A stretch of DNA of 64,000 nucleotides from Escherichia coli (GCF_041886205.1 NZ_CP169029.1); one strand, 5' to 3'; shown: positions 44,005 to 45,309, counted from the first letter of the stretch. Notes: generated by a model not told the origin, from the sequence alone. Numbers and translations: made by a program.

Positions 44005-44014
44005 GATTACAAGC

Positions 44015-44046
44015 GCATGTTATTGTTTAACATGCACTTTTTTATT
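44015..44046 (+). terminator. Intrinsic terminator after serX
   Basis: GCATGTTA-TTGTT-TAACATGC hairpin followed by TTTTTTATTT. Confidence 0.6.
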
Positions 44047-44153
44047 TATCCTTCCAGGCAGTATGCCACCGGGTATGCCATTTGAAATCGGTTTATATGC
44101 CCCACGATCATATCTTATCGGACAATTTCCGATCTTTGAGCATACTGGCAAAG

Positions 44154-44996
44154 CTATACTGCCAGCATGTCAGGATAGTGTTTTGCGATAATATCATTCA
44201 GTCTGTCAACCAGTTCTGGCTTCCTGAACGTGATGTGCGCAGAGCCCTTCTTAAAGTATTTAATAATGAACATCTCATCTTCATAGCATTCTTTTCCCTG
44301 AAGAGACCGGATGTGATCGTCCAGATGAATAGTTATGTTTTCCCTGTTGTCGGGGATCGGTTTGCCGCTGAACAGATGCAGCATTCTTTCTAGGTCGGCA
44401 AGTCTATCTGCCTGTTGCCCGGTGATAAGATGCAATCCCCACCGGTCCCACCTCACCAGATTGTTGACGATAATTTTATTGCCAAATTTACAGGGGCAAT
44501 TGGTTTTGTAATTCCAGCTCAACCCTCTGAAGAGGTTGATCACTCCTCGCTCAAACACTTCATCCTTATTCTGGTGTAGCTGCTCAAACGTACTCAGAAT
44601 ATTCTCTTCACTGATTTCCGGAAAATTATCGTACTCCAGTGACCGGTACCATGTATCACGGGCCTGTGCATCCATTAAGGAAAGCATCCCGGAGCATTGC
44701 ATCAGGTCACGCCAGATTTCGCGATCGAGATTGCGGGTGATAGCTTTCATTGCTGTATCAGGTTTATCCATGAGCCAGCAGCCGCAGCGAAAATCCTGTT
44801 TCATGGCCCAGTCCAGTGCGGTTTTACCGCCAATACTTTCTGTCATTGCTGATATTTCAGTCAGTTGCCGGATAAGTGTGTCGATTTGCAGCAGTGTAGT
44901 CTTTCGCACAGCCAGAATGTGGCGGATACTGGTTGAGCAGATAACGTCCGTATGCCCGTTGACCACTTCCGGACGGGCGATTGTGATGCCTGACAT
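44154..44996 (-). CDS. Hypothetical island protein, 280 aa (possibly DUF4942-like)
   Basis: Long ORF next to the tRNA; family not confidently recognised. Confidence 0.6.
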   Translation of the reverse strand: MSGITIARPEVVNGHTDVICSTSIRHILAVRKTTLLQIDTLIRQLTEISAMTESIGGKTALDWAMKQDFRCGCWLMDKPDTAMKAITRNLDREIWRDLMQCSGMLSLMDAQARDTWYRSLEYDNFPEISEENILSTFEQLHQNKDEVFERGVINLFRGLSWNYKTNCPCKFGNKIIVNNLVRWDRWGLHLITGQQADRLADLERMLHLFSGKPIPDNRENITIHLDDHIRSLQGKECYEDEMFIIKYFKKGSAHITFRKPELVDRLNDIIAKHYPDMLAV

Positions 44997-45092
44997 AATC
45001 GGTTTTCCTTTCTGTTTATAAATGAAAACGCCAGCCGTATTCAGGCTGGCGTCGGGGGAATGAAGTGTGGTGAGAAAGATAATGAGTGAAAC

Positions 45093-45290
45093 TCACCGGT
45101 TCAGGTGCTGAAACTGCAGATGGCGCAGAGTTCGGACATCCTGTCGCGCCTGTTCGATACAGGGCAACAGTGCTGCCGAATCCGTTTTATCCTCATCGTT
45201 GTCAAAGATAATTTCCGATTCGCAGTCAATATTGTCCTGCAGCCACGCAATCAGAATATCCAGCGCCGTTTCTGTGGTTAATAATTTCAT
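45093..45290 (-). CDS. Small hypothetical protein, 65 aa
   Basis: C-terminal part of track ORF 45093..45662, starting MKLLTTETALDILIAWLQDN; start codon checked; 20 nt after the YeeW-like stop. Confidence 0.4.
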   Translation of the reverse strand: MKLLTTETALDILIAWLQDNIDCESEIIFDNDEDKTDSAALLPCIEQARQDVRTLRHLQFQHLNR

Positions 45291-45309
45291 CCAGTGTCTT
45301 TTGTCCTGA

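Follow-up and report, generated by a model that had tools for sequence, protein, structure and literature searches.

Among the chromosomal islands found at tRNA-Ser genes, OI-43 (at serW) and OI-48 (at serX) of strain EDL933, SpLE1 of strain Sakai and the SRL PAI of Shigella carry perfect 14-bp direct repeats, TGGCGGTGAGGGGG, which comprise the last 14 bp of the tRNA gene (PMC3064760). The P4-family integrases of OI-43, OI-48 and the SRL PAI are ~99% identical to one another at the nucleotide level, and precise excision of these islands occurs through recombination of one repeat with the other (PMC3064760)—a reaction that, in the case of the SRL PAI, requires int (PMC7545054). The same site is occupied in UPEC and NMEC strains by PAI-serX islands of 62–113 kb, all of which carry Ag43, i.e., PAI-CFT073-serX (113 kb) and PAI-UTI89-serX, PAI-RS218-serX, PAI-IHE3034-serX and PAI-UM146-serX (62 kb) (PMC7545054).

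The locus considered here lies within 64,000 nucleotides of Escherichia coli DNA (GCF_041886205.1, NZ_CP169029.1), a stretch that we refer to as the window. In our assessment, positions 44005–45300 very probably represent the attL junction and the first genes of an island that belongs to the SRL PAI/OI-43/OI-48 (SpLE1)/PAI-serX family. The original prediction had pictured an oddity at this place, an island with its toxin end against the tRNA gene and no integrase within reach; what it had come upon is a named and experimentally studied island family.

The only tRNA gene in the window is an intact tRNA-Ser(GGA) at 43917–44004 on the plus strand, detected with ARAGORN and, at 53.8 bits, with the Rfam tRNA model. 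Its 5' flank carries ghrA, ycdX, ycdY, ycdZ and csg genes on the minus strand, and this neighborhood identifies the gene as serX and not as its twin serW. Aligned with K-12, the window matches up to the last base of serX (44004), with 0 identical bases thereafter. A search of complete genomes with the 25-kb core flank also returned 6EVA and wlxctx60, in which this flank is 100.0% identical to that of the window and the site is empty—consisting of ghrA, serX, short tandem repeats, a DUF2726 gene and phoH. These two genomes have zero bases matching the window past the last base of serX. Since identity with K-12, 6EVA and wlxctx60 is lost precisely after 44004, position 44005 is the true junction. 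The island boundary had been predicted at 44005, to be verified by alignment to genomes that lack an insertion at serX, and that alignment indeed sets the edge at 44004/44005. The 3' end of serX is thus the attachment site of the island, with the tRNA gene left intact and divergence from the empty-site genomes beginning at the very next base.

A closer look at the bases around this edge shows a change of transcription terminator. In K-12, serX is followed by tatttaaagaagagctcgtacgaaagtacgggcttttttt, the native terminator; the window reads ...CACCGCCA up to 44004 and then gattacaagcgcatgttattgtttaacatgcactttttt at the place of that terminator, and tatttaaagaagagctcgtacgaaagtacgggcttttttt is absent after serX in the window. 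An intrinsic terminator is nevertheless predicted at 44011–44045 on the plus strand, formed by a hairpin (44011–44039) and a T-run, and supported by both a terminator scan, which places the stem at 44015–44035 and the tail at ACTTTTTTAT, and folding (-12.1 kcal/mol, z = -4.1 in the window). The corresponding hairpin of strain AH62 folds at -17.4, and the weaker fold of the window is explained by an A instead of a G at 44036. The hairpin sequence is missing from the empty-site genomes; hairpin and T-run are island DNA standing in for the native serX terminator. The expectation that conserved synteny ends at the serX terminator was therefore right as to the gene and slightly off as to the base—core sequence stops at the 3' end of the tRNA gene, and the hairpin at 44011–44045 is the island's own. 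In annotation, this hairpin should be labelled as island-supplied.

To place the junction within the species, 5426 complete E. coli genomes were surveyed with serX-specific queries composed of 100 nt of the ghrA-side flank, the tRNA gene and 110 nt downstream. The serX-specific design was needed for the count of empty sites, as serW shares the downstream sequence of serX. An empty, K-12-type serX site was found in 4208 of the 5426 genomes (78%) and a window-type junction at serX in 1176, the two arrangements together accounting for 99% of the genomes. A 180-nt junction query that detects insertions at either serX or serW was covered by at least 80% in 1355 genomes, with identities of 95–100% among the junction-bearing genomes listed. 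The region is, accordingly, an accessory island carried by about one in five members of the species, and the empty serX of 6EVA and wlxctx60 next to a flank of 100.0% identity shows that it varies even within a lineage. The genes past the junction had been taken as accessory, a view that the same gene content at serX in most E. coli genomes would have overturned; it stands, with the window-type junction seen at serX in 1176 of the 5426 genomes. The contrary reading, namely that the genes after serX are ordinary conserved chromosome, could draw on composition, as GC shifts little at the junction (from 0.49 to 0.45–0.46). It is refuted by the 4208 genomes in which the native terminator and core genes follow serX and by the two empty sites within the same lineage, and we assign it a probability close to nil. 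As for composition, the comparison of which across the junction had been proposed, the island interior is heterogeneous, with GC values of 0.36–0.58, as opposed to ~0.50 in the flank.

The gene closest to serX is the terminal gene of the island, which encodes a 280-residue DUF4942-domain protein (44154–44996, minus strand; Pfam DUF4942, E = 2.3e-70) and is transcribed towards the tRNA gene. PHROG matches of its product include a methyltransferase-like family, and the gene is the first past serX or serW in every relative that we examined. Further inward, and likewise on the minus strand, lie a terminator-like hairpin between the DUF957 and DUF4942 genes (45027–45053; 10 pairs, 7 of them G-C, in the terminator scan), a gene for a small DUF957 protein of 65 residues (45093–45290; named after the RefSeq annotation of 98.5%-identical DNA of strain C10), and three genes identified through the RefSeq annotation of homologous DNA—those for a DUF5983 protein of 162 residues (45310–45798), which also has a weak PHROG match, a CbtA-family type IV toxin of 125 residues (45795–46172) and a CbeA/YeeU-family antitoxin of 122 residues (46262–46630). 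The DUF5983 gene occupies the position to which YeeW had been assigned. A conserved CP4-like backbone on the minus strand follows at 46710–49711, with ORFs for DUF987, RadC/JAB, antirestriction, DUF932, DUF905 and IrmA proteins named after the RefSeq annotation of C10 and AH62. Translation of 49787–52309 (minus strand) yields a frame of 840 codons that a single in-frame stop interrupts at codon 263; its counterpart is intact in AH62 and C10, where it encodes a hypothetical protein of 838 residues. The next gene on this strand (52424–55270) encodes an Ag43/Cah-family autotransporter adhesin of 948 residues, the translation of which begins MKRHLNTSYRLVWNH and which is on record, as the exact protein, with ESPR, AIDA and Autotransporter Pfam domains. 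A YeeP-like GTPase gene at 55643–56554 (minus strand; RefSeq annotation of relatives, with an MMR_HSR1 Pfam domain on a homologue) closes the conserved tRNA-proximal module on its inner side.

Beyond this module lies the cargo. A low-GC segment at 56871–58905 (GC 0.36–0.42) holds two function-unknown ORFs, of 172 residues on the plus strand and 459 residues on the minus strand. Three ORFs tested at 56.9–59.7 kb had no match in PHROGs or PADLOC, nor did ten island ORFs compared with NCBIfam have a match there, and the DNA from 56.5 to 60.15 kb recurs with 100% identity in 34 genomes. Defence genes occupy 60134–64000 on the plus strand: hsdM (60134–62572) and hsdS (62572–63921) of a type I restriction-modification (R-M) system, which PADLOC recognizes with 1422 bits (MTase_I) and 445 bits (Specificity_I), and the start of darT from 63934, identical in the window to the annotated darT of O157:H7 17B6-2. 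The cargo visible in the window is defence-related, a type I R-M system with an embedded DarTG, which is typical for such islands. The exact HsdS protein is present in thousands of assemblies, the DNA of which diverges from that of the window in the Ag43/GTPase region.

None of these genes encodes a recombinase. When 16 proteins were used as tblastn queries against the whole 64-kb window—the family integrase, IntF, an integrase-core protein, a resolvase, and transposases or accessory proteins of IS1, IS3, IS5, IS30, IS66, IS110, IS200 and IS600—nothing better than E = 0.04 was obtained, and the RefSeq annotation of 98.5–100%-identical DNA lists neither an integrase nor a transposase across the matching stretches. 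An 'HTH-like' ORF at 59858–60094 was considered as an IS3 remnant and rejected, as it corresponds to Pfam HTH_73. The claim that no integrase, transposase or IS element occurs through 64 kb is hence borne out, and no integrase beside serX had been misread as something else. Canonical P4-like tRNA islands normally have their integrase next to the tRNA gene. Here, the place immediately downstream of the intact tRNA gene is taken by the DUF4942 gene, and it is the CbtA end of the island, as originally described, that adjoins serX.

The whereabouts of the integrase in islands of this type became clear from three relatives—AH62, O157:H7 strain 2159 and strain 1303—which were followed from serX to the far end of the island. 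The AH62 island extends over ~62 kb and ends in a gene for a 400-residue tyrosine recombinase on the minus strand. The same integrase gene is reached after ~89 kb in O157:H7 strain 2159, beside ycdU, and after ~79 kb in strain 1303, where the integrase, identical at the protein level (WP_000279872.1), also lies beside ycdU and where the 180-nt junction at serX is 100% identical to that of the window. The arrangement is the same in all three: toxin end at serX, integrase at the far end and transcribed inward. The protein displays the P4-type domain set of Arm-DNA-bind_3, Phage_int_M and Phage_integrase. A 1429-bp stretch spanning integrase and attR occurs in 1259 complete genomes, and its best match is at least 99% identical in 1019 records, including O157:H7 strains and CFT073. 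That the integrase lies at the distal end, one of the two options originally offered, is therefore supported by comparison in 3/3 traced relatives and extends to the present genome by inference.

The conservation of the tRNA-proximal end bears on whether the toxin end could have reached serX through rearrangement, i.e., by inversion or exchange between related islands such as those at serW and serX. The attL flank (gattacaagcgcatg...) and the gene order behind it—from DUF4942 to CbtA/CbeA, then Ag43 and the GTPase—are found after serX in AH62, C10, ZYB62, 1303 and O157:H7 2159 and after serW in 17B6-2, the order being identical in all six relatives; the O157:H7 strain 17B6-2 has this same island end joined to serW. 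Members of one family at serW and serX with identical attL flanks would, as paired copies, offer substrates for inversion, and the island is a recombinant mosaic (see below). However, the joint between toxin end and tRNA gene is universal, being seen at serX in 1176 genomes and likewise at serW, and it falls exactly at the att core, just as the integrase end falls exactly at the other copy of the core. Moreover, an inversion between two such islands would give the same joint again, which makes the hypothesis unneeded; we regard it as exceedingly improbable. The position of the toxin end at the tRNA gene, tens of kb from the integrase, is the standard layout of this family and no anomaly.

A comparable layout had been anticipated from CP4-6 at thrW, and this analogy holds in part. 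In K-12, CP4-6 likewise presents a tRNA gene on the plus strand, followed by toxin-antitoxin (including ykfI), RadC, antirestriction, DUF932 and GTPase genes on the minus strand and by intF, also on the minus strand, at the far end. It differs in its tRNA gene, in being heavily decayed by IS elements and in its integrase. Homology between the family integrase and IntF was tested and rejected, the best BLASTP hit reaching E = 6e-4 over 29 residues. With serX as its site and the layout alone in common, the present island falls outside the group defined by an IntF-type integrase and the thrW site.

The attachment sequence itself can be followed from one end of the island to the other. The 14-bp att core CCCCCTCACCGCCA, of which the published repeat TGGCGGTGAGGGGG is the reverse complement, is present in its attL copy as the last 14 nt of serX (43991–44004, plus strand) and occurs once in the 64-kb window, as the far end of the island lies beyond 64 kb. 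It recurs beside the distal integrase in AH62 and O157:H7 2159, the two relatives whose far junctions were read base by base. There, ~160 bp past the integrase start codon, the sequence ...tttcaggcggt CCCCCTCACCGCCA tatttaaag... contains a plus-strand copy of the last 14 nt of serX, which is then followed by the native terminator. In strain 1303, the annotation shows the start of the integrase gene facing outward and an RtT repeat between this gene and ycdU. A direct repeat of the tRNA 3' end marking the other junction had been expected downstream; in the relatives AH62 and O157:H7 2159 it is seen as such, and in the window the expectation meets a single copy, with the far end lying beyond the window.

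From these junctions, attP was rebuilt from the halves of attR and attL that lie on the island side, placed end to end. The reconstructed site would run from the integrase start through a P arm of ~160 bp to GGCGGT CCCCCTC ACCGCC A and then into the P' arm, which corresponds to the window from 44005 onward, so that the predicted core would continue as ...GGCGGT CCCCCTC ACCGCC A GATTACAAGCGC... Core-type sites flanking an overlap region are the usual arrangement for tyrosine recombinases. Because, in the attR sequence, GGCGGT and ACCGCC are perfect inverted copies of each other with 7 bp between them, we propose that the core comprises a 7-bp overlap, CCCCCTC, and the half-site ACCGCC. On either side of the core, short repeated motifs suggest where the integrase may bind. 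In the P' arm, two GTATGCCA repeats 12 bp apart (44061–44068 and 44073–44080, plus strand) account for two of the three copies of this motif in the 64-kb window, and a pair with the same spacing is found in AH62 and O157:H7 beside the start codon of the integrase gene. A k-mer comparison of the reconstructed attP further revealed motifs common to both ends of the island—TATCGGACAA at 44116–44125, which has no second copy in the window (chance expectation, 0.11 copies), and CCAGTATGC, in inverted orientation, at 44140–44148. We infer that the GTATGCCA pairs of both attP arms, TATCGGACAA and inverted CCAGTATGC are candidate arm-type binding sites.

A side observation concerns the short repeats seen downstream of serX in empty-site genomes. 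These are two to four tandem repeats of ~181 bp. At the end of each stand the 3'-terminal 19 nt of serX, with all 14 bp of the core, and after them a terminator copy. In RefSeq, repeats of this kind are annotated as RtT sRNA; of the three in K-12, two score as RtT just above the Rfam gathering score. When a chimeric query consisting of such a pseudo-site and the P' arm of the island was run against the 5426 complete genomes, 0 showed an island joined to an RtT pseudo-site, and the island appears to use no copy but that of the genuine tRNA gene. Neither the 14-bp repeat nor the 19-nt identity may then suffice as a target. As a tentative explanation, and one that we consider possible rather than probable, the integrase might depend on features of the tRNA, in sequence or structure, that lie 5' of the 19 nt in common (the second half of the T-arm), or on a tRNA gene under active transcription, with the GTATGCCA pairs as its arm-type sites. 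If this were true, such target discrimination may be a so far undescribed property of this integrase.

The island of the present genome is a composite when compared with its relatives segment by segment. From 43.8 to 53.7 kb it is closest to strain C10 (98.5% identity); from Ag43 onward (52.4–64 kb) it forms one aligned block with O157:H7 17B6-2 at 96.9%, and the part from 54.1 to 64 kb aligns to ZYB62 at 98.2%. None of the complete E. coli genomes searched carries the whole combination, the best coverage reaching 86–90% of the 21-kb island part, and the exact Ag43 allele was found on draft contigs of at most 23 kb only. The alternative of a decayed mosaic had also been raised for this element. 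Mosaicism is evident, as different segments best match different genomes; support for decay, however, is limited in the window to one nonsense mutation.

These features matter for whether the island can still move. It could be an immobilized remnant, which has lost its distal integrase or attR through deletion or IS-mediated rearrangement and no longer excises. The counts leave room for such cases, since genomes with attL (1355) outnumber those with integrase and attR (1259): at most ~93% of attL-bearing genomes keep the integrase, and at least ~7% lack it. Internal deletions and derivatives reduced by the loss of one junction are on record for OI-43/48 (PMC3064760), and the island is a recombinant mosaic with a nonsense mutation. 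Yet all three islands traced end to end retain integrase and attR, the window retains an undamaged attL end with both the core and the paired arm motifs, and its 20 kb of island DNA bear no IS or transposase scars. We therefore view immobilization as unlikely, albeit less remote than the two alternatives discussed above, and expect with considerable confidence that an intact distal integrase and attR are present in this genome.

Within the family, the closest described counterparts are those of O157:H7. OI-48/SpLE1, the tellurite-resistance and adherence island at serX, and OI-43 at serW share with the window the attachment site, the 14-bp sequence of the repeat (in the window, its attL copy) and the attL flank, and their end genes are arranged as in the window: DUF4942, DUF957, DUF5983, CbtA, antitoxin, DUF987, RadC, antirestriction, DUF932 ... 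Ag43/Cah and GTPase. The O157:H7 copy has its integrase at the far end, next to ycdU. Differences concern mostly the cargo, with a type I R-M system, DarTG and two low-GC ORFs in the window versus ter, ure and iha clusters in O157; the O157 copy further has patatin, RdcB and dynamin genes as well as IS elements, all absent from the window, and even the shared end is only 89–95% identical at the nucleotide level. The SRL PAI, compared here by its published description, integrates at serX (with serW as a suspected alternative) and has identical 14-bp repeats and an Ag43-family gene (PMC3064760, PMC7545054, PMC8854971). It carries a resistance locus as well as fec and aspartate-racemase genes, none of which was seen in the window. 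In extraintestinal strains (ExPEC), the integrase and attR stretch of CFT073 is 99.2% identical to the family query, and the complete ghrA–serX–DUF4942–CbtA query aligns at ~93% identity to an O6:K2:H1 strain and to ATCC 25922. ExPEC serX islands carry S/F1C fimbriae, salmochelin and microcins as cargo; the 20 kb of island in the window contain none of these.

Taken together, the junction can be explained by a single mechanism. A P4-type tyrosine integrase would act on attP and on the 14 nt that end serX or serW (CCCCCTCACCGCCA), recombining the two. The attP of this family would lie just upstream of the integrase start codon, with its core antiparallel to the integrase gene, so that after integration the integrase would be found at the far end, next to attR with its partial copy of the tRNA gene, and the opposite end of the element—the DUF4942/DUF957/DUF5983/CbtA-CbeA/antirestriction/Ag43/GTPase module—would be fused to the intact tRNA gene. 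The antiparallel orientation of the core would thereby bring the toxin end to the tRNA gene without any rearrangement. The island would restore the 3' end of the tRNA gene and provide a replacement terminator directly after it. Variable cargo would occupy the middle of the island, here the type I R-M system with DarTG, and homologous exchange among related islands at serX and serW would render each copy a mosaic.

This model also leads to a specific expectation for the far end of the island. Given the empty sites of the same lineage in 6EVA and wlxctx60, the right flank should be DUF2726–phoH, as in AH62. The far end is predicted to consist of an SRL-type integrase gene, a P arm of ~160 bp, CCCCCTCACCGCCA, the native serX terminator and DUF2726–phoH, with the repeat predicted in the context ...TTTCAGGCGGT before CCCCCTCACCGCCA and TATTTAAAGAAGAGCTCG after it. 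For annotation, the junction should be labelled as attL of an SRL/OI-48-type serX island, not as the edge of an anomalous or integrase-less element. It is an ordinary member of a known, experimentally characterized family and matters little beyond its correct annotation; the element should be presumed excisable.

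K-12 carries the pgaABCD-dgcT-ycdU block between phoH and serX, the tRNA-Ser(GGA) gene at which the island is inserted; this block is missing both in the lineage of the window and in the island-bearing relative AH62. A single DUF2726 gene was found between phoH and the serX repeats in AH62 (locus L002, 18332-19018) and in the same-lineage genomes with an empty serX site, 6EVA and wlxctx60 (loci L032, 22818-23504, and L033, 22546-23232). Within the window's core stretch, Rfam matches to the ES056 sRNA (38225-38316), the ES036 (CssrF) sRNA (28090-28132) and the PyrC leader (18910-18959) look like usual core features.

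In genomes with an empty serX site, though not in the window itself, 2-4 tandem repeats of ~181 bp lie downstream of the tRNA gene, as in K-12 (locus L003, 13990-14565) and at the 6EVA and wlxctx60 loci. RefSeq labels such repeats as RtT sRNA, and Rfam called RtT for two of the three K-12 repeats, with scores barely over the threshold. Each repeat closes with the final 19 nt of serX, the 14-bp att core among them, and a duplicate of the native terminator. The number of repeats depends on the strain, with the serX copy plus three in K-12, two in 6EVA and four in wlxctx60, and one repeat remains past attR, the far-end island joint, in AH62. No island joined to these repeat pseudo-sites was found among 5426 genomes.

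The serX terminator borne by the island itself has an A at position 44036 of the window, an allele shared by ZYB62 at the matching position; AH62, C10 and O157:H7 have a G. The A introduces a stem mismatch, giving -12.1 kcal/mol versus -17.4 kcal/mol with G.

Further into the island, an 840-codon reading frame (49787-52309, minus strand) is interrupted by one in-frame stop at codon 263, and its counterpart in C10 and AH62 is an unbroken 838-aa hypothetical protein; the frame is probably a recent pseudogene. An Rfam match to the IS102 RNA (55289-55525, minus strand; 71 bits, gathering score 46) is located between the GTPase and Ag43 genes, adjoining the Ag43 start at 55270. The segment 56600-59400 has a GC content of 0.36-0.42 and holds two ORFs, of 172 aa (56871-57389, plus strand) and 459 aa (57526-58905, minus strand), neither of which had a match in NCBIfam, PHROGs or PADLOC. 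The DNA of this segment was recovered at 100% identity in 34 complete genomes, O157:H7 strains among them.

Positions 60134-64000 contain a type I restriction-modification operon, with hsdM and hsdS followed at once by darT. In relatives, the order runs from hsdS through DarT and DarG to hsdR, then an M48/YgjP-like peptidase and finally CDI or Zorya genes. This stretch of the window is a defence-cargo block within the island.
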